NCBI GenBank assembly: GCA_973851085.1
Contig: OZ316775.1
Span: forward strand, 11,036,001-11,100,000
DNA from: Ptychomitrium polyphyllum
Taxonomy: Eukaryota
Direction: 5' to 3'
DNA length: 64,000 nucleotides
The notes beneath the pieces are model-generated. The model was not told the origin of the DNA. It did not search any database and saw only the letters and a list, made by a program, of their open reading frames with translations. The translations under genes were made by a program, and so were the position numbers. This document shows, one piece after another, positions 33,401 to 64,000 of the stretch (position 1 is its first letter; every line of letters starts with the position of its first letter).

Positions 33401-34908
33401 AATGATTGTATTGACCTACAATTTTGAAACATGGACTAAAAACCATTTACGATAACATCTCCTTAAATAGATAAAAATAGCCATCTATAATATATTAAGT
33501 ATCATAATTATTGTAGAATTTGCAAGAAACAAAATTGAACAAGAATGCACAATAAACATATCTTCAAGACACAAAAAGAAATTATGTACACTTAAGTTAG
33601 GCTATTTTTTATTCCATAGAGGAAGAATCCAAGACTACAAGTATATAAAAAAACCTAAAGTTTTACTAAATGATTACACCATCATCTCCAAGCAAACTTT
33701 ACCAAACTTTTTTTCTTAAACTACACTTATAACAGTTGATTTTGCAAAGAATGCCAAGTAAACCAAGCTTCTCTATTCAACACCTCTTCTAAACCCTAAT
33801 TGACATTTAAAAACCAACTAACATGAAGTTTATACTACATAGATGGAAAACCCCTAAATTAAATTACACTCCATCCATTTTAAGTGATTTGGCACTCTAC
33901 ACTACAAGGATTTAAGATAGTGACACAAAACTATTGTATGAACTTGTTGTTCTTGTGTTTACATTAAAAAACCTTCTGCATTAAATTTAGTATTTTTAAA
34001 GAATTCCATAGATATGACTATTACAGGGAGAAATTTTGTACTAAGATCCCAAAGTACTTTAAAGATTTATAGGTACTAATTAAAAGTTGTGAGATTCCAA
34101 AGTTGTACACATTTTTCTATCAAAGTTTCCTCACATGTGAGAGAATACCATGTCAATCCACTCTGATTTTTTTATTGCAGTAATAAAACCCCATTCGTTT
34201 TTCAAAATTACAACACCATCAGAGATCATTGTCAAAGGAAAAAAAGGACACTATACTATACCGCACCTTGCTTTCCTTCTACATTCTCCCACCACAAACT
34301 CAACATGGAACTTCAATTAATTCATCCTCCCTTACGAATAAAATCTCAGTAGTTGAATGACAGGCTGCAGTAAAAGTGGCAACTCAGCCTTATGTCACAT
34401 CAAAACTGCAGAATGGGTTGTCCCATTTATGACAAAAGCTACTCCATTTGGCTTGTCCTGTCGCCCCACCCATTGTCCTTCATCCGCAAGCCTAGATCCT
34501 CATCCTGTCGCACAAAATTCATCCTTCCACACAGAATTCATCCTTCGCGTCGCGCAAGCTTTCGCAGTCCATCACGAAGAGACGCACTCCGTAAAAAGTC
34601 TTTCTTTCGCTTTCGCTGTGCAAACAGTCTGCATATTCTTTAAAGTTGCAAACTGATGTCTAGCGCATTGCGACTCTTCACGACTTTCTGCTTTCTACAA
34701 ACATCTCAAGCTGGTTGATTGATAGTGCCGTTGTAGCTAGAGCTAGTGTCTCCTTCGTTCTCTGATTTTCTCACAGCGATCTGTCTTTTCTTCTTAAGAG
34801 ATGGCGCAATTGGTGTCAAGGTAACTGCGATCAGCTCTTTCTCAATTGTTGGTGTTTTATGCTTGTGAGGTCGGTCGGTTGATAGATCGGCTCTGAGAAG
34901 AAGCGCAC

Positions 34909-40108: not shown

Positions 40109-41731
40109 TCAATACACCTGCGGCGCCAAACAAAAGCATAACCGTCGGACAGAATCCAGAACATGCTCGTTATGCAGCAGACATAAAGGTTTCAGAGGAG
40201 ACTCATCAGCAGACGAAACCACAGCACATGCTCGATATTGGGAATGTTCCCCGCTAGGCAATGCGGAGAATATAGATGCAATCACTTCATTCGAAAGCAA
40301 GAACCCATTTGGGTCCGTAAGACGTACATAAGTCTCAAACCTATAAGGATCCTTCATAGCCGAGTTCATGTCCAAAGTCTGCATGTTTGCGTCCATAAAC
40401 ACTACATGACCACTTGAAACGAAAGGCAGGAGAGCTTCGCACACAACTGAAGCCAAGCCAGCTCCAAATGTTGCTGAAAAAGCATGTAAATCCAAACCTC
40501 GAGCTAATCTAAGCGAAAGCATGACCGCGTCCAAGGCCCTCTCCTCTTTACTATCTTGTGGACATTCGATGTTACCCCCTGAGCGCTCAAAGCCTTCAAC
40601 AAACTCTCGGTACTGCTTGAACTTCCGAGGTCGTGAAAATCTTTGCCCAGAGACGTAGCTTGTAGATCCCAATCCAAATGCAAAGTACGGCAAGCTGTTC
40701 CAATAGACAAGGTTGTGTTTGCACTGAAACCCTTCCTTGGCGTAGTTGCTGATCTCATAGTGTGCGAAGCCTGCCTCCTGGAGCTTGGCCGATGCCATCC
40801 GATAAAATTCTGCGGCGTTATCGTCGCTAGGAAGAGGCGCCTGCCCTGGTTTGTACCACTTGTTGAAGAGAGTACCCTCCTCAATTTGCAAATCGTACAC
40901 AGAAACGTGAGCAGGGGAGGCTTTCACAGCCTCGCTGATGGAATGTTCCCAATCCTCTAGGGTTTGATGCGGTAGAGAGGAGATGAGGTCCAAGCTCCAA
41001 TTACGTAAGCCACTTGCGTAGATTGCCTCAACAGCTTCGTAAACTTCACTCAAACCGTGCGAGCGGCCACAGGATTTCAGAAAAGCGGCCTGGAAGGACT
41101 GTACGCCCATAGACACTCTGTTCAACCCTCCGTCCATCAATTGCCTCAGAGAATGCACATCAAACGTCCCGGGATCCATTTCCATAGAAATTTCCGCTCC
41201 TGATTCGATACCAAAATGCTCATTCAAAGTTTCAATGATACGAAGCAGGAGCGGAGGTGGGAGAAGAGAAGGAGTCCCGCCACCGAAGAACACTGTCTTC
41301 AAGGGCTTGCTACTATTAACCATGGCCGCAAGACGAATCTCCCGGCACACTAACTCAACATAGTCGGTCATGCTCGCGTCCATATGCGCTTTATTCTCCT
41401 CCGTTCTCTCTCCCACCGCTACAATTGGAAAATCGCAATAGAAGCATCGGCGTCTGCAGAAAGGAATATGAACATATACCGAGGACGGCAGAGCCACAGC
41501 TCCCTCATCCAACACTAAGGGATCCACCACTCGAGACGACGCGAACTCCGCAGCTAAGTCACTCGTTGCATGTGGAATCTGCAAGGAACGAATGCAAGGA
41601 GCAGAAGTCACGAAATTACGCGAGATTGAAGTGAAGGGATGGCGCAGAGAGTGAAGGGAGGTGAGAGGAGGGCTGCAGGGGGAGTGCAGAAAACGAGGCG
41701 GGGGACGTAGGAGGAACAAGAGGCGATTCAT
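40109..41731 (-). CDS. HemN/HemW-like radical SAM protein (probable heme chaperone, RSAD1-like) with organellar transit peptide; intronless
   Basis: YVHIPFCRRRCFYCDF (CX3CX2C), FFGGGTPS, EISMEMDPGT, NRVSMGVQSF and HYEISNY...HNLVYW (HNxxYW, HemW-type). The first ATG, at 41731, begins an R/S/L/P-rich N-terminus. Confidence 0.92.
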   Translation of the reverse strand: MNRLLFLLRPPPRFLHSPCSPPLTSLHSLRHPFTSISRNFVTSAPCIRSLQIPHATSDLAAEFASSRVVDPLVLDEGAVALPSSVYVHIPFCRRRCFYCDFPIVAVGERTEENKAHMDASMTDYVELVCREIRLAAMVNSSKPLKTVFFGGGTPSLLPPPLLLRIIETLNEHFGIESGAEISMEMDPGTFDVHSLRQLMDGGLNRVSMGVQSFQAAFLKSCGRSHGLSEVYEAVEAIYASGLRNWSLDLISSLPHQTLEDWEHSISEAVKASPAHVSVYDLQIEEGTLFNKWYKPGQAPLPSDDNAAEFYRMASAKLQEAGFAHYEISNYAKEGFQCKHNLVYWNSLPYFAFGLGSTSYVSGQRFSRPRKFKQYREFVEGFERSGGNIECPQDSKEERALDAVMLSLRLARGLDLHAFSATFGAGLASVVCEALLPFVSSGHVVFMDANMQTLDMNSAMKDPYRFETYVRLTDPNGFLLSNEVIASIFSALPSGEHSQYRACAVVSSADESPLKPLCLLHNEHVLDSVRRLCFCLAPQVY

Positions 41732-42758
41732 GGCGTCAAGCTTCAACGAAACCCCAAACCCTAGACGTTGAGCTAACGATGTACTTCCTCCCACCACGAC
41801 TCAGTCTCTCTAATGTCACTCCCTCTGGACTTCCTTGTAAGCGCATTTTTGAGATGAAGTTCCAGTGCACTTTCCTCTCCAAAGATGTCACTCCAATCGA
41901 TCAAAAGACGCACATAGCTGCTTTAGGGTTTTAGTTCATAGGAATGAGAAATTTTTCAGCAAAGGTATATATTAAACTAAAACGATCTATCAATTTGTGT
42001 TTTGACCACAAGTGGAGAGTGTCAATTACAAAGAGAAAGTGCTGTGATGTGCGAAAGAGTATCTTAGTTGCACAGCAGTTCTTTTCCCACATGTATTGCA
42101 GATTTCGGCCAAGCCATTCACAAGCTATTATCCTGTTGCCAACTGTATTGCTTTTGCAGACCACTAAATATGCGGAATATATTTCGGTCAGATTCCTTCT
42201 CTCGTTTTTGTGGATGATATTGTCGTTTCAAATGTTAGCAGTGATCAGGGCTCTCTGTAAACCACTTTTACACCAGCGTTCACAGGAGAGTTTTCAGTCA
42301 TCTAGTCTTCTTAGGAGCTACTTAAGAGCTCAGATGAAAGGGACAATAAACGACATTCAATCTTCGACGCTCAGTTTGAGAAAAGCTGGAAATGACGACT
42401 AGGTTTAGGACAGGATGAAGCTCGGAATATTGAACTCGAATTGCTTTTCACTATCGGCGTTACAGCCCTTGGCATTGGACACAGGGATTTCACTACAAAA
42501 TATCAACATGAGAGATGTTGCGAACAGACTTGCAAAACAGGCGAGAAAACAAGCACACAGAGAAAAATGATAGGAGTACTGGAAAAACATTTAGAAACTT
42601 AGTAAAAACTTCAGTTCCAGCACAATCTCCAAAGAATTCTGATACTTCTGTACAGCGGCAGCAACCGCATGTGGTATACAGCCTACATAGCACCTGATCT
42701 TTTCCTGCTCCATCCCCTGCAGATTCGTACATAGCAGCAGAATGCACTTACTCACAAT

Positions 42759-43716: not shown

Positions 43717-46700
43717 AGCTCAAAAGATTCGCAGAACTCACTGCAAAGACAACCAAATTCGGCGCAGAACGGCTCAAACGAAGCAGAAGTGCAAGTATGA
43801 TAGGAAATCCAGAGATGGACGTGTGATTGCAAGAAGTATCAGCGCAATCTGGAGGTAGCGATGGCGTGCAAATTGTGGTGGAGGACGGCGCACCTCTGGA
43901 GTGGATGCGTGGAGGGCAAAAGGACTCAGTGGGAGCTTTCATATGTACGCTCGTACGATCTATATCTATGTAATACTCCTCAAATACTGGTGTAATACAC
44001 TGAAGATGCTCTGTCTGTACCTGGGTGTGGTATCCGTCGAAGTAGACGGTCGTCCTTTGTCTGTTACCTCGACTGATATTTATGCAATACTAGTCTGCTA
44101 CTGTGTGCAATATTTTACGATACCATTTCTATACTTAGATGTGGTACGTGGCGAAATAGAAGTTGAGATCCTCTTGCAGATGGCGAACCGACGAACTAGG
44201 AAATCTCTTTCCCTGTGGCAGATGGTATTGTGTAGACGGGTGGATGTCGTTTTGTATGCCCGAAACAACTCCGCGTTTCGTATCTCGAACGAAATCACGT
44301 GAGTGGGGACGAGGAAGCGGGCAGTTTGGAAACTGACGCGCATAGGCTCTTGTATTGGGCAGCTGAGGTTGGGCAAACGGAGGGGTCGTTATTTGGTCTG
44401 CCCACGGAACCCTTCCGCACCACACTTTGCCGGGCGTGATAATTTGAGAAAGCTTCCGATACGGGACGCCGGAGTTTGAAGCGGGACTGCCCGTTGTGAG
44501 CTATGGTTTCGACTCACGCTCGGAATTGGAACCTATTGGAAATTGTGACGAGTGTAATGTCCGCTTTTGGGGTTGGGATTGGCACAGTGGTTGATACAGT
44601 TATACTGTACCGTACTGTATTGTTAATCAGCACCCGTGTGACCCAAATAAAAATTTGCATTTTGGCAATGCTATACATAAGCATTCACCCACATCAAGCC
44701 CCTTCGGATTAAAGGCCCTGATTGGTGGGAGGACGCGGTTCTTTAGAACGACCTTAAAATTTCATCATTACCAAACTATGTGCTTGGCAGTTGATGATTT
44801 GAAAGAAAATTTCATGGCATCATGCATTTATGCAATAGACCTGTTGAGCTCACTGTAGTTGAAAATGAATGCAATCTGTAAACGGCAATAATGAAAATAA
44901 AATCGTTATGCAAAACAACACGCATCGATCATAGATGAAAAAAATTAAATTGGTCACATGTGTTTTAAACTGAAAGATTGTAGTGTTTAATAAAAAATAA
45001 TTAAAAATTTTGACAATTTTTGAGACATGCTTAAAACCCATGTGACCTTTTTTATGAACATAAGGCTTGGAAAATTGGGTTCAGAAAGAATACAAGGCTA
45101 AGGCAGACCGATTTATAGTTCAAATCTTATAAATGTTTTGGAAAAAGGTTTAAAATAATCAAAAAAAATTTTATGATGTATGTATTATATTGTAGTAGGA
45201 GAAAAATTATGTTTTTCTAAATCTATCATTAAGGATAGCAATTATTTTAAAAGATGAATAGAAATTGCTTAACTAGTAGCAAGACAATCTTAATAATGGA
45301 TGTTATTTCCAATTTGGTTTTCTCTGTATTTTGCTCTTTGGATCTAATAAGTCCTTTAATTCTAAACTCTTCATAGAAAATAAAGCTTGTTTATTTTGTA
45401 ATTCTTGTAATATGATTTTTTTACACCCATTGAATAACACATTTTATATTTTATTTGTGTCCAAAAGGTTGATCAAAGATATGTGACTTTACAATAACCT
45501 TTTCAAATAGTTGAAATGAACCACCTTGCCTTTGAAATCAGATATAAAGATATGGAAATTTATTTATTTTCAAATCATAAATACAAATTTTAATTGCAAG
45601 AAAAATAATTAAAGAAATTACAAAAAAGGTACTTATATTTTACATACATTTGAATTTAGTAATTCATGAAGTTTATATAAAAAAATAAATATGTGAAGTA
45701 TGCTAATTAAGAAGTCAATAATTAAAGAAACCCATGAAAATTATCGCAATTTATTTTGGATAACTTAATGCTTTAAGCTATATGTATATTGGTTGCATAT
45801 AAAAAGTCTATTTTTCTTATATGTGGTATTGGAAACTATGACCAAAAAGTATGATAAACAATCATTAAAATTACAATAAGTATATAACGCATAACCATTA
45901 AAACCATTTTTTTTCATTGGAATAATAGGTTATTATTAAACGTTTCTTAATACTTTCTAAAAATTAAAAATACTATACAAGGTGTTACTTTCAAGCCCAT
46001 AATACTTATATTCATATATATTTTAAACATATATTATTTTCCTTCCAATTTCAAATAATGTTTTCATGTAAATTTGGCTATTTTTTTCATAAATTTTAGA
46101 AAACTCTTTTAAAAATTAGAGTTTCCATTAAAATCCCTTATATGAATTCAATATTACTTGGACATCTATTTGCTCAAATTCATTTAATAGCAAACGGCAT
46201 AAATAAAAATACAAATGTGATATTAAAGAAAAATTTAAATAGACTTTCAAACTTATTTAATTCAAATGGTCATTAATTGCATTTCAAATGATAATTTCAA
46301 AATACAATAAAGACCTATAAGTAGCTTTATATTAATATGTGCAATATATTTGTTTACATAAGAAGGCTTTTGAAATTAATGAAACAATCATATGTATGAT
46401 CTATAAATATTATTTTCTCTAATACATTTTGATCATACAATTGAATTCCAATACATGTTATATTGTATTAAAATAAGTTAAAGAATATATAATAATTTGA
46501 AGGAAAATTTGGTATGGAACAATTCAACTTTTGAAGAAAATGCCACATGTCACTTTCCATTAGTTTGGATCATTAAAAAAATGACATATTTTTCAATAGT
46601 TAGTCATCCTAGCATTACATTACCAAAGGCTTTTTTTGGATTTAAATTATATTATTTAAAAATATACTTCCAATGTATATTATTAATTATAAATTTTATG

Positions 46701-47815
46701 GGAGATTAAAATTTCTTAAAAGTCTTTTAAAAAAAAAATCTAATTTCTTTAAACATGTTTATGGTGTACAAAATGAATGCAAATCATAAACCTATATAAA
46801 TGTGTACACATAAATGTATAAAAACATTAATATATGATTTATTGAATCTAACAAAAAGGCTATCTTTTTAAAATGTTTATCTTTTAACAAGTCAATTTGA
46901 CATGTAGTTCAATTAGTCTTAAGCATTTAAGACTTACAACATTAATAAAGGAATGAATCACATAAATGTTTAGAGTATAAATCATTTAAAAAGCTCATTC
47001 TGTAAACAAATTTTGGCTCATCATAACAAATTTTTCATTTTAACAAATTAATAATTTTATTTCATGTTTTCAAAATAAACCTTTTATTTGAAAAATAAAT
47101 AAAAATTAAACACTTCATATTGAAAAAAAAAATCAGAAAATTAATCCAATATAATTGCATACAGTAAGAACTAAAAAATTTCAGCTATACAATTATAGAA
47201 AGACATTGAATTAAAAAAATTAGTATAGTACATTAAACTTGATTCATATTACTTTAATGGAGTATAGTTCATTATTTAGTTTATCCCTTAAATGGTAACG
47301 GTTACTTTTGAAGTATTTATATACTGTAATTATTTTGAGATTTTATTATATATTTTAGATTTTTCTAATGTATGATATAATTAAATTTATCAAGTTAAAT
47401 TTTTTATAAATACTAAATCCAGAAAAATAACTTAATTCTTTAAGCATTTGGCAGGAGTAAAATCAAATTAAAAATAGAAGATTCTAAATAAACAGAAATG
47501 ATTTTGTAGTGGAAATACGGTATGATGATATGTTGGATTATAATGAAAACTTTTAGAGTCTTGTCTTTTCTTTGAATTATAGATTGAAAGCTTTTCATAA
47601 CTTTATGTGACCTTCCATCTCTTTTGTTTTTTTTAAGTTTTAGTAATTACATATGAAGCAAATAAGTTTATTTCATCATTGACTTTTGAATATATATGTT
47701 TTTTTTTTTTTGAGGTCGCACAATATCAAGTATTATAATGCTACAATAATGTTATTGTTAATAAAAATTATTACAAAGATAGATATGTAGAATTACTAAT
47801 TTTAATCAAGCCATC

Positions 47816-50800
47816 ATGGAAATGTGGGAGAAGGATGGGCATCTCAATCAAGAGCTTTATGCGCTTCTACATTTGTCTCCCAGAGCTTCTAATGATGAAA
47901 TAAAACAAGCCTATAGGCAATGGGCACAGATTTATCACCCTGATAAGCATCAAACTCCACAAGTATGTGATATTCTATTAGTGATTTGTTGAATTGGTGC
48001 TTGATATAAATACAAGATTGTGAAATGATATGCATTGACAACAAAAAATATGGCTTCTTTGATTTTATATAATTAGGTTGTAGAAGTATACAATTCCATT
48101 GGGTTCCTTTTAAAATAAGCTTTGTGAAGAAGATTAATAAATAAAATCATCTTATAAATGGATTTTTTTTTATTGACATGTAGATTATTCAAATCACCAA
48201 ATATAAAGCATGTGCACTTGAAATTTTAAAATTTGATGCAAAATTGATTAATAGCCATAATAATGCCATAAATATTAAATATATTGAAATTTAAAGGACT
48301 GTTTTTTTAAATCATGGTAATTGAAATTTAAAGACATTTCAAAATATAATAATTAGTCAATATGGTTAAATGTTATATTTTTTGGATTTGTAATATATTA
48401 CATTCTTACAAAATAAAATAAATGTACAACCAATATGATATAAATGGAAATATCATTGGTTCACAAATTGCTGCTTTGGCCATATTTTGTGATTATTGAT
48501 AGATGCAAGACATTGCAACTGAAAACTTCCAGAAGATACGGGATGCATATGATGTTTTGAGTGATGAACGAAAGCGACAAATATATGATTTATATGGATT
48601 GGAAGGTTTAACTTCGGGTTTAGAGCTTGGTCTAAAGTTGAAATCAAAAGAAGAAGTTAGGGCTCAATTTGAACGCTTACGTCAACGCAAGCAAGAAAGA
48701 AAATTAGATGCTTATGTCCAGCATAGAGGATCTTTCCTTATGAATTTGTCATTAATACCATTTTTGGAATCATATCATATTCCCAATTTGAATGGGTTTG
48801 TTCTTTGACCTTATTTCTAAAAATTCATATATTCAAATTTTTTATGATTTTTCATTAGATTTTAATGAGTTGCATTGTTATACATATACTTTTATATATA
48901 TGCATAATAAAAAAAAATTAATTAAATGATTGAAATCAATTCCGTCATTCAAAGGTAGCATTTGCTAGTCAAAACTTGTCCACTAAAGATTGAAGGAGTT
49001 TGAGCGCCAAAGTTGCAAAATTAGACCCATACCTTCATTCATTCAATGCTTCATGTACTCACTTTCCTTTATTGTTGGTTTTCCACCTTTGGATATTAGG
49101 GTGAGTTCTTCAATTGCTAAAGAATGTTATTTTTAAATTGAATTATTTCATAATGATTTTTATAAATTCAAAATAAAATTTTTTTTTGCATAAAGATATA
49201 TTCTACAATGCATAAAGATGTATTCTACAATGTATAAAAATGTAGGTATATAATTTTAAAGATTTTATACAAATGCATCATTGTATTGACTTTTCACATA
49301 ATGATCAAAAGTTTAGATTTTGGACCTTTATAAAGCTACAATTTGTGGTTATATTTTGTGTGTTTTAGCTTAGATTTTTTTGCTACTAATTACCACGTTT
49401 TATACAAAATAATTAAAGTATAAAAGTACTATACACATATCATTTTTTCTTTTGTAGGGATTTCTTTAAATTTTCATATGTCATTAAAGAATTTTATGAC
49501 TTTGGCACCAGAATGCTAAAATTGTGTTTTTAACTTTTATCAAGTATTTGTATTAATAATCCTTTTCAATTTTTTTCTAAAAATTATAATTATAATTTCT
49601 TTTGTAAGATTTTTTTTAAAACTATAAAGTTTGATTTTCTATCATTTTCTTGAAATCATTGTATATTAGTTTTTTGGATTTTCGTGGAAACTCTAGATTA
49701 TTTGAGCATAGGCTTATATTTTTGTGTATCAACAATCAAATTGGGTTTTTTGAAATCTTTTGAAATACTTGCCTTCAACAAAGAGGATGTTGGAAAACAT
49801 GAGAATTCACTTAAGTACTTTGTTTTAAACATTTTGACATTTTATTTTAATTATATTAAAAGTGATTATTTTTTTAAAATATATAAAATGAATTGTGTAT
49901 ATGTTAAAATAAACCATGATTTTGCAATGTAAACTTTAGAAGTTGACAATTGTTTATTTTTGTGTTTATATAGCATGGCAATGTCTACACAAGTTCAAGC
50001 AAAGGTATCGAAAAACGATACGCTTATATTGGGTGGAAATATGGTTTTAAAGAGGGGTTTAGGAGGAGGCTCTGTTACAATGATTTTGAGGCGTCAACTT
50101 TCACCAATTTCTAGAATAGAAATTGTAACTATGGTTGGGCTCCGCTCCCTTTTAAGCCTTCAAACTTCAAGGTATTTACTGTGCTAAAAAAATCAAATGA
50201 ATCAATAAAAATCTTAGTTTCTAAACTTATATCATATTAACTGAAAGTCAGGTTGTTATAAAATACTTCGAATAATTAGAAGAAAATGCCATGAATCATC
50301 ATTTGGTTGGTTTGAGTTTCTAAGAATCAACATAAGAGTTGCATTTCAATGACTGAATTTCTACCTTAAATTTCTTCTAATGATAACCAAAGATATATGA
50401 TGCTATAAAATCACAGCTCTTGGAATTTTTTTGTGTGGAATCGCCATGGTTCTTAATTTTAAAATGCCCTTTCTTCTTTGACTTGACTTACAAATGTAAA
50501 TGAATCCATGAGTGAACATGAATGAACAAAAGATGGACTCTGAGATGAATAGAATCTTTGTATAAATGAGTTGTTGACATTAAGTTGTTGAACTTCACTC
50601 AATTGAGTGTTCAGCAGCCACTGTTGTAGTTGGTGGTTGCAGACAACTTTCTTCTCATTCAACAGGGACTTTGGGATTATCTGTATCATTGAAAGATGGT
50701 TCGGTAACCTTAGCGAACACTTGGTCACGTCAATTGTCAGAAGACACCACTGGCAATGTAAGTGTGCTCTATGTTTCTTGTATTGCCCCATAGCCAGGGT

Positions 50801-53800
50801 ACCATAATTCTTTTCTTTCTTATGGTTCTTATATGCAGAACTTTACTATATTCAACTTCAACAATTTATTATGCATTTGACGTGGATCTAAAATTTGTAT
50901 TTTTGTTATACTAGAACGTCTTTTTCATTGAAGTTGTTCGACACATATTTGCTAAATTGTTTAAAGCCATGATTGTAAGAAAACTACCTTATTGCTCAGA
51001 ACATGTTTCTTTTATTGTTTGATATGGGTTTGTGTGTGTTGGTTGCCAAGATTTCCAATTGCTCATAAGCATTATGGTTATAATATACAGATACAATTAG
51101 TCGTTGGACCAGAGATGGGAATCTCAGTGGGTTGGCAAAAGCATGGCGAGAAAAATGTTGGCTCGGCTGATGTAAAGGTGTGGATTCTCTATATGTGTAT
51201 AGAGTGGTTCACTTGGAATTAAACATATTATTTCTTTTGACTAGGTGAATTCATTCAAGTATTCCACAACTTCTAGTGTTTCTTCAATACTTTGCTTGCC
51301 AACCAAATGCACAAGTGATGTTGGGATACTGAACAAGTCATATATTGTCATGCATCTTTTAGTACAACAATAAGGAATTCCAAACATGAAGTTGATAAAA
51401 ATGAATGCACAAGTGGTTTATAAATTATAGCATTTAGAGGATTAGCCAAAAATAAACCATTCTTAAATTGTTGGAACACCTCACTCTAACCTAATCACAA
51501 AGTAAAAAATGTATGGTCAAGTACTTGACAATCTTAGAATACAAATATCATTTGTATTCACATTCCTATGAACACAATAATTTATATTCAAATTTTCATA
51601 CTCAATGTACTTACATACCAATACTTACATTTGATATACATTTATGCACATAGTTTATGATAATGATTATATCTTTACAAGAATTTAAAACTTAATACAC
51701 ATTATTTCCAACTCTCTTCATGCATGTTACAAAGAAAGCTTTTGGCTAGCCAAAAATTAAAATCAATAATTTAGGCAATTTTTAATCAATGAATGATCTT
51801 AGAAGTATATTTTAAAAACATACATGTATAAATATGTGTGTGTATACACATGCACTTGCTTTTTTCTAACCTTTATAACTGATTAATTAAGTTGGGATTT
51901 TGAAGGTAGGGCCTACCACAGTTGGAGTATCATGTCAATTTGCTCATCATTTTTCATGCAAGTCTCAAGGTCAACTAAGTGGCAAAATTGGCAGGTCTGT
52001 AAAAGTTTGGCCTTTTAATTGTATTTTGAAATAAAGTTGAGACCAATAAACCAACCTTTTTCTTATAAATTGATCAACGTGAAGTTCTTTTAAGAATTAA
52101 AATAATTTTTATTCGAATTATGTTTTGATGCATCAAAAAATCATAGAGAAGTCATTGGCCAAAAAAAACAAAGACTACTTGAATTGAAAGGAAGGGTCAT
52201 TTTCATTCATGAATCAATGCATGTTTTTTAAATAAATCTACCATAAACTTTGATAATTACTCAAATTTCGTCAGTGTTTGTAGAATAATTTACAAAATTG
52301 CCTCCTTAACTCACATGATTACATAATATAAGGGAAGTGGTTGCTCTAAGTAAAAAATTGTTTGAAAAGTCTTTAAAGTCAAAAATTATTTACCATCAAA
52401 ACTCAGCAAGTGAGTATTAGTACTAAAAACATTGTTCTTTGCTATAGGATCAAAAAATCATTTAGCATCATTTTTAAGCACTAATAAATTTATATTTATA
52501 CACAAGGTTGCATTATGATGTATAGTAAAAAAAATATGAAAAATTAAAATAGCAATGAAATTAAAAGAAATTCAATGTTGGAAGTAGATACAACATAGTT
52601 GTAAAGGTCATGCATGCTAGGAGAATGACAAAGTATGATTGTACAAACAATTAAAATTTGAATGTTTTAGGTAAAATTTGTATCTAGAAAATTATACATT
52701 AGATGTTAATTTTCTTCAATAGTACAAAAAAAAAGAGCCAAAAAGGTTATATTTGTATTAAAGACTAAGTTCTTCATTGTTGAAGACTATCAATATGATG
52801 CTACAATTTTTTTGAATGATTTACTTGTTCTTTTAATATTATTTATCTTTTTCTCTCTTAATTTTTTTTTTATAGTTTTATAGTTTTAAACATTTATATT
52901 TATTTAAGCTACAACTGCATAAAATCATTAGATTATTTCAACAAGCATCACAAAAATTTGCATAAAACTAGATCCTTGTTACTAATATTTTTTTTATATA
53001 CAATAACATTCCAAAACTTGTAGACAATAATAAGGCCACCAAAAAAATCTCTTTGATGAAAGTTAACTTCATTTTGATGTCACAAAGGTATCAAACTAAT
53101 GTGGATATGACATAAATTCATTAAACATCACATGTCATGTCAAAATGACAAAAAAAAGGTGATTTCATGATGGACCTAGATGGTGAACTACATCAAGCCA
53201 CATGATAAAGATTTGGATTCAAAGTCCATACAAATTAGACTTTCTTTGTCATTCAGTAGTCTACTATTGAGTCCATCATTGGATTGGGGAATGAAGTGAA
53301 CATTGGAAAGCAGTATCCAAAGGGGCCATTTCATACCATTTTCTTTCAATGGGATAGAAATCAACTGAAAAAAATCTATAGGGGATGAAGTTTTAATCTT
53401 GTTATAAGAGAAATGTCCAATGTATCCAATCTCAATACAGAAACTTACGAATGCCCAAAGTTTCATCATGAGTGCTGATAATTCTACTTGTATGGAGGAA
53501 GTACATCTACACTTATGCCAAAGTGTGTCCAAATCTTATGGACACAAGTTTAGTGTGTAGCTAGAAAAGACGCTTAATTCCCAACAGCATTTTGGGTACT
53601 CTGTTCTCCTCCTTGCACTGATTTTGACTTTTGCCTGTGGAGGTGATGCAGCACTGGAGTAGAGGTTGAGTTAGGTGGGGAGAGAAGACTTTCAGACCAC
53701 AGTTCGGCTGCCATGCTCTGTGTGCTTGGACTTCAGGTTTTGGCTTTATTTTTCTTATTAGGATGCACTAGTCAATGAAACAGTGTGTCTAGTATTTGAT

Positions 53801-56800
53801 GGCACAGGCAACAGACAGCATTTTCTCTCACAATTTTGTGGTCATTTTGAAGTCCTGCTGGTAGTCTTGCCAACACAACTTGATTGATGTTGGCCCTTGG
53901 GAAGATGTGGAGACTTTTTTCTTGGTTTTGCCACCTGTTTTTTTCTTCAAAGCATAGACGATAAGCTCAGTGGACTGGACACTTCAAACATCCATGCTAA
54001 CAATGTAAAATGTAAGGAACTCAAAGAAGATATGGATTTTTTGGTTAGCACATCCCATCTGTATTGTGGGCATTAGAGGGAAAATACTTTCATTTTTGTT
54101 GGCTCCTTGAATGGGACAAAAACCCTTGTTCTCTCAAATTCTGTAATGATTTCTTGTAAATTATTTTGTTTGAAGAGTCAAGAATTGTGTGGTGTTTTTT
54201 TTTGAATTCAAACTGCATCTTCTGTGATACTGAAAATGCGAGTATAAATGTATTAACATTTAAACGCACTAAAGGTTGAAACTTCCAATATTTTTTAAAT
54301 GAATATGATGTAAAACAGATAGATTATACAGTAGCTATGATTTTGGTGATAGCTACTTCTCTTCTGATCAAACCTTGTATATCACTTACTTGTTGGAGAG
54401 TAAATAAATTGATGGAGTTTACGGCTTCTGGAATTTATATTTCAGAAGAGCCAAAACATATTCCAACCTTTAGAATAAAATTTTGTTAAAGCTCAAGCAA
54501 TCTTAGGATCGAAACAGTGCTTTTGTATATTACATTTCTGATTGCTTAATAATGGCTTAATCTTCTATTTCCTCTGAAAAACATACAGTTGCAAATCCCA
54601 AAATTGTACATTAACAGTTTCATTTTTTCTTTTAATTTAGGGTATATCTTGGAAAATTCGATTCACTCGAGGAGGCCAAAAGTTTGTCATTCCTGTAAGC
54701 GATGTTTTACAAACTAAACGTGCAAATGTTCAAAAAATGATGATTATTTTCTAAAATTATTATTATTATTCAAGTGTTTAGATGTGCAATGCAATGAGAA
54801 TTTTGGGAAAAAAATTCATGTTATAATAACAATTAATCCACCTCAGAAGATCGTGCCAAAGATTGTTTATGAGAATACACATTGAATTGAGGCCAAAGAA
54901 TTGATATACAGGTGCCTTTGTATTTGATCAGATAATGCTTTGTGCAAAAATTAATCCATTCATAGCAGTTGGAGCTTTGGTTATACCATCATCCATCTAT
55001 ACAATTCTAAAGGTACATTCTTTTTTAAAATGGTGCAAAAAATGACTAAAGGGATTTATAAATTTACAAAAAAATTACAAAGGAATTTATAAATCCTCTT
55101 TTGTCATAATATTTTTATGACTTATGATTTTTTTTGAAAACTAATTGCATGAATTTTTGATTTTGTGAAGTCTTATGAAATCTTACGTTTTTAAACATGT
55201 ATTACTTCTTAGAGCATATGAATGAATATTATTGTAAATATGAAATTTATAACATGCATAAATGTTGAATTACTTCTATCATCATGCAATGCAGACCTTT
55301 GTTTATAAACCTTATAATCTAAGAAGGAAAAAAAAAAAGATCATAGAATTACGGCAAGCAACATATACACAAGTTAGTTCTATGTTTCCTTCAAATCTTG
55401 ATTGTACCTCTCTATTTTTCATTAGAAACTTACCACCTATAACATCTATAATATGATTAATAAACTCTAGCTTTCTACAACTCTTTCATAAAACTCATTA
55501 ATTTGATCCATTTTTTTAAATAGCTTTTTTAAATATCAAGTCTTTGGAAAAAAGCCATATATTTGCACAAACTTTTGGAACAAAGAAGGTTAATGCATTT
55601 TAAATACATATAAAGAAAAGTGTAAAAGAAGTATTAATCTAAGAAAGAAACAAGATGATCATGGCATATAAAAATCAAGACTTCATTGTCAAATAAGCAA
55701 TGTTTGGTTATGCAAATTCATGGTCTACAGTGTAATTTTTAAACCATTCTCAATTCAATAGACTTTGAATGTCAATATCATCATAATGCAACATGGAAAA
55801 GTCATAATTTGTGTCCATAAAATTTTAATATAAACCATGCATTTATTTTCTTTAATCTAGGTTATGGAGGCAAGGGCTTCTTCAGAAAAGTCACAATTGC
55901 TTTTAAAGAGTGTAGCAGAAAGGAAGAAACAAAAGCAAGCCCAACAGAAAGGACTCGTCATTCTTGTTGCCATATATGGTGATATTAAAGCATATGAGCA
56001 AGGAACAAATTGTATGGACAAGTCTGCAAGCACTGAAGATGACAATGCAGATCTACCTCCTCCCTATTTAGATGTTGCAATACCAATACAATTCTTGATC
56101 AATGACTGTGGACAACTTCGAGTATACATTTAGTTTTATTCTTTAAAATATTATTTTCCCCTCATTCATTGTATTCTAAGTGCAATATTTAATACAATAC
56201 ACTGCTTTAATGTTCATATGTTATGAGCAATCAAAAATTTCGAAATCAGATGCAAATGGTGTAAATTCATTAAATAAAAAATTATATAAATTGTACTTTA
56301 GTTGGTTTTTTAGCACATTGAGTTTAAATCTATTTATCCATGAAAAGTTATTTTGTTACTTTTTTGGAGGATCACCTTTTGAATTATATTTCTTGATGTC
56401 ATGATAGCTACACAAAGGAGTAAAAAAAGCAGGTCTAATGGGCTTTTGTGACCCATGTCCTAGTGAATCTAAGCAGTTGAAGGTGGTATACAGTTACTTA
56501 GGCCACCACAATGAGGTATTTTAATATTTTTTGTTTTTATATTGGTATTATATCATTATCTTTAATTTTTAAATGTCATGAATACTATGCATGTAAGAGC
56601 TTTGTAAAACTATCTATATTAAATACCTTGTTACCAGTCAAAATAGAAAATGGTTCATTTATTTTATGTCTTCAATCAATTATGTAGATTGAATTTACAA
56701 TTGGTGGAATGAACATTTTGATATATGTTCTAGGAACAAAAACAAGTGTCTTGGAATTACATTGATATATTTGTGACATAATATTCATAAATGTAGGTTA

Positions 56801-57039
56801 TTGTTGGAGATTATGATGAATTGCAAATACCTCAAGAAGTGCACAAAATACAATGTTTTATTCCAGAGAACGTTGAACAAGTAGATCAACGATCCTTCTC
56901 TTTTCTATGCTTAAATATAAGTAGTGTAATTTTTACTGAAGTCTACATTAATGCGTATGTAATTTTTAAAATTATATCCTTCCATTCATATTTAAAAAGA
57001 ATTGTTTTTCTAAGATATTCTTCAAAAGACATTGAATAA
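47816..57039 (+). CDS. OWL1: OWL1/ATJ13 (DNAJC11-like) J-domain protein, about 13 exons in AT-rich introns; 3' end is either the stop at 57037-57039 or a splice at 56880 into the downstream gene
   Basis: Exon 1 [32 protein letters not shown]. Exon 2 [39 protein letters not shown]. Later exons [68 protein letters not shown] and [18 protein letters not shown] (DUF3395-type C-terminus). Confidence 0.9.
53188..53532 (-). mobile_element. Possible degraded Ty3/gypsy integrase fragment inside an OWL1 intron
   Basis: The translation contains [11 protein letters not shown]...[14 protein letters not shown]...MDFESK, a weak echo of the integrase GLLQPLPIP...LPxSxGxxxILVVVDRFSK pattern. No LTRs are seen. 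Confidence 0.35.
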
Positions 57040-57270
57040 TTGTATAATTTGTTGTCTTCAAATTAAAATAAACATAATTTTGTGATTGTAAAAATTCAAA
57101 TTTTATAATCATGTATGATGCAATTTTATCGTAACCATTACAATCAATCCAAGCTTGGTTCACGATTCATGTAAGAAGCTGAATAATTGAACTGAAAAAA
57201 TTAATTTAATTATGTATAAACATACAACTCCTATTCAAATAAAAAATTGGCAAATCTTTTTTTTATTTAG

Positions 57271-60200
57271 GTGCCCTTAAGCAATTCATATTGTGATAAT
57301 CCACTTCATGAGCCCAACCCAAGATTGATATCTTCAGAGATTAAAGAAGAAAAACTAGAACAATGTATTGCAGTTTCTTCTAATGAGCTTAGAGAAGAAC
57401 AATCAAAGATCAAAGAATTAAAATTTGAAAATAGAAAAAAATATGATATTCAAAGAATACATAATTTTCATGTAAAGTGCAAATCAACAAAGGTTGAAGG
57501 TGTAAAGTATGTAGGGCATCCTATATTTGCTAATAAAAAAAAGAAGGATAGTTTAGAAGATGGACATTTTCAAAGATTTTATAATTTTGTATCTCCCAAT
57601 CAAAAATTTAACAAAACATCTGATTCTCAAGAAGTCCATAAATTTTTGTTTATAAAAGAAGATGTACAAAGTATTGTTTCTCATGAAGAAGTTCATGGAG
57701 TTATTATTGAACTTGTAGATAGTTTGTACATGGCACTAACACAGTGCCAAAAACAAAGCCTTGATAAAAAACCAATTACTAAGGTTATTGTTGAAAAACA
57801 AAAGTCATTGATCTTGACATATGAAGATCTAACAATGGCTTTTCATATGGGAAATTTTTCAAATAAAAATATTTCTCTTATAGAAGTTGTAGACAAATAT
57901 AATGTCTTAAGAGGAGCAACCACTAATTCTATGTCACAAAACCTAGATATATGGTCAAATGAAGCACAAAATATGGGTCTTGGATGGGTTCCAATTGACA
58001 ACAATGCAACTGGATTTCAAGTAGAATCAATTCAAGCTTGGCTTGTAGCCTTGATCCTCATTCATGAATCTCAATGTAATATAAAACTATGTAATAGAGT
58101 GGATTTTAAGTTTGGAATTGATGCTCATACCATTAAAAATAGTCATATTGAAATTTTTGAAGTCATGGTTGAATTGTTATATAATCCAAGTCCCCTATCT
58201 TGTATAAGTGTTGCCAATTGGAAAGGCAAAAATCAACAATGGAATGATTTTTTTTCTTACATAGCCAAAACAACAGATTCCAAAAATATTCTTCATCAAT
58301 TAGGTGCAGTTTGTGAGGATGGATTAAAAATAGATGATCGTCATTTGGATGTCACATTTATAGAGTGCCATCATATGGCATTTTATTGTTCATCTCTTTA
58401 TAGAAACCAAACCAATGGTTTTGAAAAACAATTTTGTCCTTGGTGCACTATTTCTCATCAATCTCAATGTATTGTAACAATGGACCACAATATTGCGGCA
58501 GATGACACCATTAAAGCTTTAAGTTCAACCTACCATATGCGACCTCAATTATTAGTGGTATGCATTTGCATGCACATCAATGCTTAACTTTTTCATTCCA
58601 TTGCATTCAACCATTTGTTGCAAGTGTTGTTTATTTTGTATATTTGAGCCATTGTATAAACATAATGAAGTGATGTTTTGCACAATATTATTTTATGATG
58701 ATAAATACAACCATTATTTCGTTATTTCTATGAAACTAAGAAGTAAATTGTATTGATACTCAATATTTTTCAAAATCCAACATGTAGGAACTCAATGCCT
58801 TTCTTGAGAATCTTCATTATGAACACAAAATACATGAATTTCTTCCAGATTTAAAATCTGTAATTGTTTTTCGCCATTGGCCCATGAATTGTAATAATAT
58901 CTATAAGGTATAAATTTCGCCAAGTATACATAAAAAAAAACAAAATTTACTTAAAAATAATAAACATTTATAAATTTATGAATCAAATATTAAAGACATG
59001 TTGAATTGAATTACTAGTGCCTACAAATTTCACCTCAAACAAAAAAAAGTTCTGCTTATTAAAACTCAATATTATCTAATTGAAGTTGGATAACGTATTT
59101 TAAAAATGTAACAGAAATTTAAATACATATAATGAAATACCAATCTTTTAGTACTCTCTGAAATTGTAAAAATTATTTAGTTATTTATATCAATTATGAA
59201 GGATCATTTTTGGTGTCATATTTTTGCATGTAGCTTACACCAGGAACTATGCTGAATACCTATTGTGCTTGTCATGCACTTACACAAACCATATCACATA
59301 TGATAAGAACACTTGGAATGCAAGCCCAACAGTATGACCAACTGCATAAAGAAACACAATCTCAATTTATGTTGCTTTGGCAAGCTCTGACCAATCCACC
59401 ATTGCTTATAGAATGTGAGATTGACACACAAAGACCCACTAACAAGGAAATCAAGTATGATGAGTTTGATGAAGAAATTGCAAACCATATTCTGAATAAT
59501 CATGAAAAGCTCTTTGAGGTAAATAGTAATAAATAAAATGATTTTACTATGCTTTATAAAAAAGAACATTAAATGATGCACATGACTTTAAAAATGATTT
59601 GTACCGAGTGACATGAAAAAAATTGCTTTACTTACTACATTAACAAATACAATTTATAATCTAAAATAGAGTATTTTGATTTGCAGCTTCAATTATGTGG
59701 ATTCGTTACTGTAACAAGATTTGCTTATTAATATTTTTTATGGCTACCTTATCATATAAAATTATTTGAATTACAAATGTAAAGCATAATTGAATATTGT
59801 ATCATGATATTTTAATAAATAATAGGTAATAGAAGAAATACCTACGCTTGAGATATTTGTGTATACAAAACGTATGTGGGGAACTTATTGTTGTTTCAAT
59901 AAATTACAACAAATGAGCCTTTCCCATTCTCCAACTTCACAAGATGAAAGGTACAAACTCCCATAAACACATAAGATTATTACTTTTTTTTGGTTATAAT
60001 CATTTAAATATTAACAAAAATTTGAATATTTTCTTTCCTTGTGTTGCCATAGCTTGGTGGTGGTAGCAAGAGAATTCCTCTACTATGCAACAAAAGCACT
60101 TGGTGAAGATGTAACACTTTACATTCACATTCAAGGAGCTCATGCGGACCAATTTCAATATATGTTGCCCTATCCTATAGGCCGATTAAAAAACTCAGTT

Positions 60201-63200
60201 TGTCATTCAACTCCTCTTGAAGTTTTTTTTGGTCTACTTTATTTTCTTTTCTTTTTTGTAGATTTATGTTAATAAAAACACCATGTCATACCAAAATTTA
60301 CATTTACATGATGTATGGAACAGGCCATGCAAAGAAAACATAAACTGTACAATGATATTTCATTGGTTATGTGTACAAACGATGGTAAAACAGATTTTTA
60401 CAACAACAAGAATATGTTTGGATTAGATACAGAAATGATTGCTCAGTATGTTTGTCTAAAAATGATTGCCATGCCAACACTTCAGGTACAAAAAAATTGT
60501 ACGACGTGTCGCTTTTGAAGCTCTTGTAAATAAAAACAAGAATAGAAACTTTCAAGTATCAAATTTTACGTTTATAAAGTAGCTTTTCACCAATTAAAGT
60601 ATGTAGTTTACATTTTTGGACATTTCTTCTAACAAAGTAAAAACATTAGACTGAGCATGCAAGTTCTAATGTAATCACTGAATATCACATTGACCTTTAA
60701 ACAGGAACTGAAAAAACAAATTGAATGTTGGATCCCGTGGTCAATGAGGTCTTTTTTACATTGCCATTTCAAACAATTAGGATATGTTGCAATTTCTATA
60801 GATGAAGCAGAAAAGTTAGCTGAACATTTGCCAACTACAACTGCAAATCAAGTTTTTTGCTTGTTTAAGACTTGGTCCGAATATTATTTGAAAAACCGCT
60901 TTGAAAACGAGGTAGATTTTATTTTTAAATTTGAAAGTATTAAAAATAAAAGTATAATGTTAAAATAAAATAAACCATAATCTATAAAAACATGTTATAT
61001 ATTGAATGTTAATGATTAAACTTACACATAATTATATGTTATGTTTAAAGATTGGAACTCAATTTATTTACAATGGAAATAATACTGCATTTTGATGAAT
61101 TCATTGCAGCTTTTGCAATTACCTGAAGAATCATTTATATCAGAATCCAATCTTATACAAGATGGAGTTGATATAGAGCTGTCAAATATCACCCAAAAAA
61201 ATGTTGTTGAGGAAAATTCGTATACCTGTATGAAAACTCAAAATAAAAGTGGCTCTTGTTTAAAAATATGTAATAATGAAATGAATGATTATAAAATCCC
61301 AATTTCTATTGGAGTCCTTTGTATGGAAGAAGCTTCACATCCCAATAACTGTGAAAACTTATTCAATCATTGCGATACACAAGTAGATCCAAAATGTTTA
61401 AATAATGAAAGTTGTGAGACAAATGAAACTATTCATCAAGAAAAACATGAAGTAACAAACATTGATAGTGAATGCAATTTTTTTTTAAATAGTATAATTA
61501 ATAGTATTCTTAAAAATTCATTTGAAGGAAGGATCTTAAGCAATAAAGATAACAATCTTCACAAACAGTCTCTTGCAATTTCAAACATAAAAACAATTTC
61601 AAATGTGGAAGAGGCAAAGCAAAGCATTTTTAGAGAATATTATAATTTGAAACAAAATATAGAATATAATCAAGGTATTCAAGAGAGAATTCCAATTGAG
61701 TTTCATGAAATAAATGACAATGAAGTTAAAGTAAATTTTCTTTATCCATTGAAAGATTTTGCACTGCAAACATCAATAGTTGATTTGTATGAATCAAAAT
61801 GTCAATCTTTTGATGTTGTTGATACAGAAAAATCAAATAATAAACAATCATTACAACGTTTAAAAGATGAAAAATTACAAGAAGTATTGTCTTCTAATGT
61901 ATTTAAAAAGATCAATGCTAGTGAAGAATTGTCATGTTCTAGTAATAAATGTGAAGATAACAAACTTACATATACATTAGATAAATCTTCAAATTTAACA
62001 TTGGAAAAGCCTAAAAATCTTCAATTTCAAGATTATTCTAGTTTGATTTTAATGGTTGATTTGCAAGGAATTACAACAAATGTTCTCACAAAAAACTCAG
62101 AAAGCTTAATAGAACTTAATGGTGGTTTAAATACAAAGCATGAAAAATTCCTTGATACAAAATTCCATGTTGAAGAACACAATGTAATTAAACAAGATAA
62201 AAAATTGGAAGCTTATATATTTGAAAAAAATCTCCAAGATCTTCAATGCTTTGCTAAAGATTCACAATCTGTATTAGAAACCGCAAAAGGTAGTGATGAT
62301 GATATTAGTAGATTGACTATAAACGAGAATTTTGAATATATTAATTCAAAGAATTTGCCACAGAAAAATGAAATTGAACTCAACAAAATTCTAGTTAATA
62401 ATGTTAATAAATTAAAGAAAGATAAAAAAAATTATGTTGATTCAAAAGCTCTTGATATAGAAGCTACCAAGTCAGATAATATTCATCAATCATGCAAAAA
62501 AATCAATAAAGATACTATATTAAATAAAAAATTGCATATAATCCCACAATTTAAAGCAAAAAAAATTAATGAAAATAATGCTATTAAATCATCTACTTTG
62601 AAAAATATAAAAGAATTGAAAAATTATGCAATTAATTGTTTAGATAATTTAGATCCTGCATTAACTTTAGAAACTAAAGAAATAATGTATTCTTATCTAA
62701 CAAATAAGAGCATCATCAAACAAATAAATAATCTTGAATGTTGTTCTTTATTAGATGAAAATAAGAAAATTGATAAACATATCAATAATTTTGAATCCCT
62801 TTTAAAATCAGGCAAAGATAAGAACTTTGATGATAATGATTTATGTGCAACACACTTTCATAACAAAATTATAGATAATTACAATTATGTGATTTACAAT
62901 GGATGTGAAAGTTCGTTATCTCAAAGTCATTCACTTATACCAGAAGATGGTGGAATTTTGAAAAATAAAAGATACACGAATGATGACATCATGCATAATG
63001 AAAAATCATTTAAATTAAAAAGTTTTGAAAGATCGTTAGATTCTTTATTTGAAAAATCTCGCACTTTCAAAAAACTATATATGAAAAAAACATGTACTCA
63101 ATATAATTCATTAAAACCATCAACACCTCCACCTCTACATACTTTGTCTACAACCTCAACAAAAGTAAGAGTGCCTTCACCAAAAGTGGATACATTATAT

Positions 63201-64000
63201 CCTTGTAACCCATATCCTTTTTCTAAGGAAGACTTTATTAAGGAAAAAATTGAAAGATTACATCCTTATAAACCGTGTTATCATAAAACTCATGGTTTTG
63301 ATAAGAAGAAATCAAACAACAAATCAAATAAAACTAAATTAGAATCAATAGATTATTCCACTAAACACAAGTTTCAAAGACAACATGTTTCTCAACCATT
63401 ATGTAAGATGAAAAAAGAAACTATGACAATTTCATCTCCAAAACAAGATTTGTACTTAAAACCTAATGGCATCCAAAATAATGAAAAATTTCATGAAATT
63501 AAGAAACCAGAGTCAAGTTTGCAATGTTCCAAAAAATGTAAATTTATAAAAGCTGATAATGCCTTTCCTGAACCCAAAAAATTAAAATCTTTGCATGTTG
63601 AACATGAGTCTACTGAAAATGAAATTTTTGTACCATTTGTATTTGATGATGCAAGATTCTTTATGCCAAACAAACATGATGGCATTCAAAATTCAAACGC
63701 TTCTTGTGATGAAGAACAAGAGAGAGTTTCATTAAATTCAAAAAAGAAGGTAACGGTTAATCCAAATGATTATATAATCTTACCAAGTAGTTTGCAATGT
63801 CAACAAGTCCCTACATGGGTGGCCATGGCAGATTCAAAATTTGTTACACAAGACGATAGTGGTAATTTCAATTATGAAGGTCACAGAAATCAAGAGCCTT
63901 ATTACAATGAAGTTGTACAAATTTGCCACCATCCTTTAGACACATCTGTAGAATTAAGGATTAAGGATATTGATTTGCAAACAGCACCTTGCAAAGGAAC
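57271..64000 (+). CDS. Multi-exon RAG1/Transib-like transposase-derived protein with LysM-like insert, homeodomain-like exon and long low-complexity tail; 3' end outside the window
   Basis: Phase-compatible GT-AG exons 57271-58557, 58788-58907, 59234-59518, 59826-59950, 60053-60197, 60324-60485, 60705-60911 and 61110->64000 give one open frame. Motifs in order: FKFGIDAH, NPSPLSC, FCPWC, CACHAL, TLYIHIQGAH, PIGRLKNS|AMQRKHKLY. The exon structure is well supported; the family call is by eye. Confidence 0.72.

Follow-up and report, generated by a model that had tools for sequence, protein, structure and literature searches.

Is a RAG1-like transposase core found in a plant part of a mobile element or of a host gene, and does it still cut DNA? 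The question is raised by a stretch of 64,000 nucleotides from Ptychomitrium polyphyllum (assembly GCA_973851085.1, contig OZ316775.1, positions 11,036,001 to 11,100,000 of the forward strand; "the window" throughout), in which an earlier note, made from the letters alone, described an intact, intron-rich and probably domesticated gene derived from a RAG1/Transib/Chapaev-related transposase. The explanation we prefer, with a probability of about 0.6, is that of an intact plant gene that descends from a LysM-bearing RAG1/Transib-like transposase, has become non-cutting, is spliced onto a duplicated DnaJC11 gene and serves as a DNA-binding regulator or scaffold.

Gene model and probable junction with the DnaJC11 gene

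The transposase-derived part of the gene comprises eight exons (A to H, Table 1), all with GT-AG borders, that run from 57271 to beyond 64000. Once spliced, they give 1740 codons with zero stops, and the window ends before any stop codon is reached, so that the gene is longer than 1740 amino acids. The six exons joined in the earlier note do connect in frame, with GT-AG at every junction, and its motifs (Asp284, NPSPL, the two cysteines, His483, His631/His636, PIG and the splice between exons E and F) all lie where it had placed them. Its gene span, 57271 to 60485, does not stand: 57271 is a splice acceptor and not a start, and two further exons follow 60485. The first methionine of exon A appears only at residue 154, leaving 153 codons free of a start.

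Exon A has nine close relatives among 1576 candidates (47–71% identity), which are single-exon pieces. Run against 1.84 billion proteins, a profile of exon A and these relatives retrieves 36 at E ≤ 0.001, and the alignments of close and distant family members match with a probability of 99.8 across 242 columns. Two relatives are long and uninterrupted, P0022 (1057 amino acids, from a marine transcriptome collection) and P0025 (897 amino acids), the latter being the only return of a search with profile A3 among 7987 candidates. Spliced exons 2–6 score 192 against the intronless P0022 (300 shuffles: mean 48.5, maximum 76) and 96 against P0025 (300 shuffles: maximum 79); since they outscore all shuffles against intronless relatives, the splicing model is better than chance. 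BLASTP aligns the spliced model with P0022 at 22% identity over 504 columns, crossing exon junctions and remaining colinear over residues 183–667 (484 amino acids). No relative of 752–2145 amino acids was present among 185 candidates, a size range that a 2300-residue fusion exceeds, and scans of metagenome contigs, viral contigs, prokaryote genomes and plasmids found no loci of relatives. A further set, P0013 to P0044, consists of about 30 short fragments in at least three more family groups.

Directly upstream lies a DnaJC11-type J-domain gene of 13 exons (Pfam PF00226, E 3e-11; PF11875, E 4e-16 and 9e-12). These exons join the eight transposase exons in frame to give 21 exons and 2300+ amino acids, again with no stop, and GC content drops past 56958 from 0.29–0.33 to 0.19. 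The first 141 residues of exon A, which contain no methionine, are conserved in six of the eight relatives tested, above all 200 shuffles, and an open stretch of that length has a chance of ~7e-6 in the introns of the locus. The two halves have an observed-to-expected (o/e) CpG ratio of 0.26 each and a GC content at third codon positions (GC3) of 0.30 and 0.24, against 0.69–0.77 and 0.46–0.75 in nearby genes. A second DnaJC11 copy with different intron lengths occurs in the same sequencing runs, so the upstream copy may be a spare. On balance, we lean towards a fusion of the transposase-derived gene to the upstream DnaJC11 gene.

Several observations weigh against such a fusion. If the last DnaJC11 exon is left unspliced, its frame ends at a stop of its own at 57037, and the read-through is open for longer than is usual in intron DNA, which favours the later donor (56959) or a stand-alone form. 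Upstream of 56881, the letters also allow in-frame mini-exons that begin with ATG; one of these, at 56578, has a strong donor (56593). Most relatives have a methionine near residue 142, and P0008 and P0009 start with methionine and have N-termini unlike that of the window gene. These points suit the same dead, domesticated RAG1/Transib-like gene standing separately, head-to-tail behind DnaJC11, with a short first exon of its own or a start at Met154. We nevertheless consider a separate gene unlikely: the stop at 57037 lies only 231 bp from the acceptor, with no in-frame ATG exon in that interval (none begins with ATG within 56881–57230), the 141 residues preceding the methionine position are both open and conserved, and the 128 upstream residues of P0005 are free of methionine.

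Fold and family of the core

Residues 180–429 of exon A were modelled from a 43-row alignment with a predicted local distance difference test score (pLDDT) of 74.9. All four Foldseek matches of this model at E ≤ 0.001 are HzTransib (best E 3e-4), and the listed rows down to rank 42 are RAG1, RAGL or Transib. In a second structure search over 48,161 chains, the top six matches are RAG1, HzTransib and BbRAGL (Z 8.0–9.7, root-mean-square deviation (rmsd) 4.2–6.1, 152–192 residues aligned), followed by the next chain at Z 5.1 and the P element at 4.4. The P0022 model has 35 Foldseek matches at E ≤ 0.001, the best being RAG1 (7.3e-8), with Hermes at 0.29 and Mu at 0.27; in the second search it aligns to RAG1 over 299 residues (Z 10.4, rmsd 7.9). 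These matches assign P0022 residues 257–712 to an RNase H core with a RAG1-type pre-RNase H region and zinc domain. Atlas, which compares language-model features, ranks a RAG1 cluster second (score 0.97, 196 of 256 features) and places RAG1 clusters near both halves of the transposase-derived part.

The order of the motif positions (D, D, CxxC, His, His-x4-His, PIG and E) is the same in the window gene as in Transib. In the part of the PMC9435367 supplement covered here, Transib sequences have His-x4-His, then a PIG motif, then a Glu 21 residues past the second His. The window gene aligns to this spacing and its PIG anchor without gaps, with Gln in place of Glu; against mouse RAG1, the earlier note had already seen the matching H-x4-H spacing and a gapless IG...KL(Y/F) alignment. 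The distance from the second Asp to the Glu position is 289 residues with the LysM insert and ~237 without it; the covered part of PMC1131882 gives 206–214 for Transib and 253 for RAG1.

Some results tell against this assignment. No sequence-level match to RAG1 or Transib was found in the 43 family members with Pfam or in PDB sequence searches, and exons A, F, G and H match no named family (Pfam for all four, PDB sequence search for A, F and G). An apparent likeness of exon G to SANT/Myb was dropped, as neither Pfam nor PDB sequence searches bear it out. Only five of the ten best named Atlas matches share a family, and the tool flags the result as doubtful. Confidence in the P0022 model is low (pLDDT 57 on average, and below 50 for residues 708–787, which hold the Glu). 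To our knowledge, CACTA, Chapaev and Mirage have no solved structures, and because of this the fold alone cannot separate these families from RAG1 and Transib.

The core could therefore come from another branch of the CACTA–Mirage–Chapaev (CMC)/Transib clade, with RAG1 and Transib leading the searches as the sole members with solved structures. In addition to the lack of a sequence-level link to Transib, Atlas lists a Transposase_21 cluster at rank 29 (score 0.91, 139 features). We regard this origin as quite improbable, because Transposase_21 (CACTA/En-Spm) is found in 0 of the 43 family members, the His-x4-His, PIG and 21-residue His-to-Glu spacing fits Transib gap-free, and the Asp-to-Glu distance less LysM falls between those of Transib and RAG1. 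A RAG1/Transib-like origin of the core, as predicted from the models, is thus highly probable, and the earlier family call gains from the fold, the language-model features and the motif spacing; the comparison with RAG1 and HzTransib structures that it proposed puts RAG1, HzTransib and BbRAGL at the head of both structure searches. The family is filed as an undescribed RAG1/Transib-like branch, not as proven Transib. A viral fold library yielded nothing for exon A at E ≤ 0.001; its best match there is a 200-residue Sylvanvirus protein (BFVD A0A3G5AI30, E 1.4e-3).

Predicted catalytic residues, zinc site and probable LysM insert

The predicted triads are D284/H368/Q657 in the window gene and, counted from motif starts, D345/D431/E722 in P0022 and D320/D404/E711 in P0025. 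Asp284 terminates the long first strand of the exon A model. The second Asp position, which forms a strand-to-helix junction in the P0022 model, is His in 10 of 10 close sequences; it is filled in 22 of the remaining 33 rows (16 Asp, 4 Asn with one poorly aligned, 1 Ile, 1 Thr and 0 His). For RAG1, the covered part of 10.1101/698332 reports that cleavage is severely impaired, and DNA binding preserved, when any single member of the triad is neutralised, and the titles of structure entries name E962Q as the mutant used in pre-reaction RAG1 structures. All four zinc ligands (C389, C392, H631 and H636) are present. Two triad residues replaced and four zinc ligands kept suggest a folded, non-cutting core. 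The protein is, by its predicted catalytic residues, in good likelihood nuclease-dead, with two of the three replaced. Hence "intact" applies to the open spliced frame and not to the catalytic triad. Two limits weigh on this view: Gln657 is seen in the window only, because the relatives are single-exon pieces, and the Glu/Gln mapping rests on motifs, because the P0022 model is unreliable there.

Could the enzyme instead remain active, as a plant counterpart of RAG, through a metal site remodelled from Asp284 and the conserved Glu365, His367 and His368? All 10 of 10 close sequences keep the first Asp and the Glu-Cys-His-His motif unchanged, and no other long region is as well conserved as the RNase H region, where 37 of 97 columns are invariant. 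However, the second Asp and Glu positions are now neutral or basic, where one such change cripples RAG1 cleavage, and the acidic residue after the third strand (58231, possibly the counterpart of RAG1 E662) has become Asn in the window gene, where the nine close relatives have Asp. Retained nuclease or recombinase activity is accordingly very improbable, and we keep to a non-cutting core. Zinc-site losses occur in the D/D/E relatives: P0022 lacks both Cys, and P0025 lacks one Cys and both His, so that the zinc site seems dispensable in the P0022/P0025 branch, as far as sequence can tell.

In the window gene, 91 residues separate the CxxC from the conserved His that follows, against 29 in one Transib (PMC9435367 supplement), or ~62 extra. 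Part of this insert, residues 404–457, aligns to P0022 473–524, which in the P0022 model matches LysM structures (5ylg, Z 6.2, rmsd 1.3, 46 residues aligned; 4s3j, Z 6.2; 4uz2, Z 5.8), and a LysM fold is predicted for P0022. Pfam LysM is weak and below cut-off in 4 of the 43 family members and gives no match in the window's own fragment. A LysM domain directly after the CxxC is therefore likely in the window gene. P0022 and P0025 are best read as D/D/E members that define an undescribed LysM-bearing branch of the RAG1/Transib-like family. The zinc domain of RAG1 has a RAG2-binding sequence that is missing from insect Transibs (PMC1131882, in the part covered; PMC9435367), and we infer that LysM occupies the same slot. 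Many Asp-type fragments end at the end point of exon A, after the first LysM half; as they end at a common place, the intron there seems older than the domestication.

Probable domestication, proposed function and comparison with known systems

A protein-level tree was built from 32 of the 43 rows, 11 having been dropped for low coverage. A branch with support 100/99 sets the ten His-type rows apart as a slowly evolving clade, on a stem of 0.57 and with tips of 0.02–0.2, and the remaining rows have tips mostly of 0.3–1.5, long as expected of decayed copies. Rows of the His type are on average 66% identical to one another, compared with 35% for 15 Asp-type fragments. Sequencing run X1 covers 52200–64000 with a single contig (depth 39.7), in which the core shows no alternative letters at 80% likeness. 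Copy number had been named as a check in the earlier note, and no second close copy occurs among the 16 of 201 contig pieces listed (80% likeness, with diverged copies outside its reach). The gene appears to be single-copy; two runs of one sample, neither recorded as RNA, contain the stretch, depth does not equal copy number, and X1 may be the source of the window. Contamination was considered and rejected, since a single contig piece of 43.6 kb carries both this gene and the plant-type DnaJC11 gene and its depth is even.

Inverted repeats in 44000–64000 are AT-rich low-identity pairs only, in keeping with the earlier statement that no terminal inverted repeat is visible upstream (the 3′ end of the gene lies beyond the window), and 56881–57270 holds no heptamer-like site. 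The introns to which the earlier note had pointed are real; as a sign of domestication they are weak, because Asp-type fragments seem to have the intron behind the first LysM half as well. It is the conserved clade with its fixed Asp-to-His substitution, the apparent single copy and the open frame that make domestication, as first proposed, very probable. A non-autonomous or recently dead transposon copy without a host role is scarcely credible, for although the many short Asp-type fragments point to a family once mobile and decayed somewhere, and P0012 is an internally deleted close relative (from before the first Asp through the LysM half, possibly a decayed duplicate), the gene has 1740 amino acids, seven intact introns and no stop, and belongs to a conserved clade with a fixed substitution and no second close copy listed.

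For the domesticated, fused gene we propose that a copy of the transposon inserted immediately downstream of a spare DnaJC11 gene, that its ends were lost, and that the DnaJ stop would then have been bypassed through splicing. Along the stem of the clade, His would have replaced the second Asp; Gln would have replaced the Glu. With zinc site and fold retained, dimerisation and the holding of DNA would persist in the absence of cleavage, and the J domain would bring Hsp70 to the DNA-bound complex. The dead core would act as a regulator or scaffold, like other plant genes of transposase origin (PMC4948706, in the part covered); we put a role as DNA-binding regulator at even odds. A brake on related transposons is possible, and long conservation fits a host role better. 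More tentatively, and at somewhat less than even odds, a RAG1-like transposon family with LysM in the RAG2-binding slot would exist in microbial eukaryotes and land plants, one copy of which would have been domesticated independently of vertebrate RAG1 as a chimera of 2300+ amino acids, part Hsp70 co-chaperone and part nuclease-dead RAG1-fold clamp. If true, this chimera would link chaperone action, and possibly glycan sensing, to DNA.

DAYSLEEPER and ALP1 are domesticated plant transposases, and ALP1 also lacks catalytic residues. Like the MULE-derived FHY3/FAR1 and MUSTANG (PMC4948706 and PMC13306707, in the parts covered), which act as regulators, the window gene would be a host gene made from a transposase. 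These genes, with DAYSLEEPER and ALP1, come from MULE, hAT or Harbinger; no domesticated plant transposase in the literature covered is RAG1/Transib-like, LysM-bearing or fused to a J domain. Transib (HzTransib, PDB 6PQN/6PQR/6PQX/6PQY; PMC1131882) is the best Foldseek match of exon A and has the same motif order and His-to-Glu spacing, whereas the window gene lacks detectable sequence similarity to it, contains the extra, probably LysM, residues, has a D/H/Q triad, many introns and no terminal repeats seen, and is likely fused to a host gene. RAG1 and RAG1L (mouse RAG1 4WWX, BbRAGL 6B40, AanRAGL in PMC9435367) are among the top matches of the second structure search and have in common with it a RAG1-fold core, in all probability domesticated here too, the four zinc ligands and an insertion after the CxxC, where RAG1 has its RAG2-binding sequence. 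RAG1, in contrast, keeps its triad and cuts, and the insertion of the window gene is probably LysM; no RAG2-like gene, RING or N-terminal RAG1 region is seen in the window, nor is there a RAG2-like kelch gene upstream of the transposase gene within it. Compared with DnaJC11 J-proteins (PF00226 plus PF11875), the 13 upstream exons form a complete copy with HPD intact; they differ in having no stop at the domain end, in being AT-rich and CpG-poor and in their in-frame chain to the transposase exons.

According to the part of PMC1131882 covered, plant genomes held no Transib as of 2005. The earlier view that such elements are described mainly outside land plants needs amending, as 39 plant Transib-like proteins have been counted in print (PMC9435367). 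In the part of its supplement covered, three of these have known headers, on angiosperm scaffolds of 3.1–4.5 kb, their motifs insect-like; names of mosses or liverworts did not turn up there. Titles and abstract openings, with most subscription papers outside this coverage, gave no literature on the window gene, on any DDE transposase with a LysM domain or on a DnaJ–transposase fusion; further related papers were covered in part (PMC12973397, PMC7204232, 10.1101/2023.08.20.553239, PMC8355894, PMC6854553, PMC11511760 and PMC3597677). Textbooks present RAG1 as the prime example of a Transib-type enzyme tamed by its host, whereas the domesticated plant transposases known to us come from other superfamilies. 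A second domestication of the RAG1 fold, in a plant and as a dead enzyme, would let one test the role of the fold without cutting, and the LysM-bearing branch of P0022 and P0025 bears on the origin of RAG1's partner-binding insertion.

Table 1 Features of the window (positions count from its first letter; RAG1 equivalents are predicted).
Feature	Position	Strand	Remark
Ordinary neighbours	1800-44000		importin-beta, enolase, ubiquitin protease, WIYLD/Pre-SET/SET methyltransferase
YqaJ nuclease	12206-13366	-	
HemN	40112-41800	-	
DnaJC11-type J-domain gene, exons 1-12	47816-56515	+	open frame, all GT-AG, HPD intact; likely 5′ half of fused gene
DnaJC11 exons 1-6	47816-47962, 48503-48795, 49974-50171, 50643-50757, 51091-51177, 51906-51994	+	
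DnaJC11 exons 7-12	53652-53736, 54641-54694, 54932-55012, 55295-55372, 55861-56121, 56408-56515	+	
Last DnaJC11 exon	56797-56958	+	no stop at domain end; phase 0 donors 56881, 56959
Exon A	57271-58557	+	aa (amino acids) 1-429: conserved linker, pre-RNase H region, RNase H strands, CxxC, first LysM half
Asp284, first catalytic Asp	58120-58122	+	probable RAG1 D600 equivalent; kept in 10/10 close sequences
NPSPL motif	58183	+	
His368 at second catalytic Asp position	58372-58374	+	probable RAG1 D708 equivalent; placed by motif and model
CxxC zinc ligands Cys389/Cys392	58435-58446	+	Cys at 58435 and 58444; both kept in 10/10 close sequences
Likely LysM domain	58480-58871	+	~aa 404-457; split by intron 58558-58787
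Exon B	58788-58907	+	aa 430-469
Exon C	59234-59518	+	aa 470-564; His483 at 59273 (probable RAG1 H795 equivalent)
Exon D	59826-59950	+	aa 565-606; helical portion of zinc domain
Exon E	60053-60197	+	zinc ligands His631/His636 (60126, 60141), PIG motif (60174)
Splice, exon E to F	60197/60324	+	
Exon F	60324-60485	+	holds Gln657
Gln657 at catalytic Glu position	60330	+	probable RAG1 E962 equivalent; Glu in P0022 and P0025
Exon G	60705-60911	+	aa 709-777; no family match
Exon H	61110-64000	+	963+ aa, K/N/S-rich, GC3 0.17; frame open beyond window end; no family match

The neighbouring genes mark the window as land-plant DNA, WIYLD-SET genes being plant-specific, and their style would suit a bryophyte host. 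Two AT-rich blocks (GC 0.21–0.34), at 46000–64000 and 30000–34000, lie amid genes with GC of 0.4–0.5. The first has a CpG o/e of 0.26 over the DnaJ and transposase genes, and the second contains a weak J-domain fragment (30222–30494, minus strand) that falls below the Pfam cut-off.

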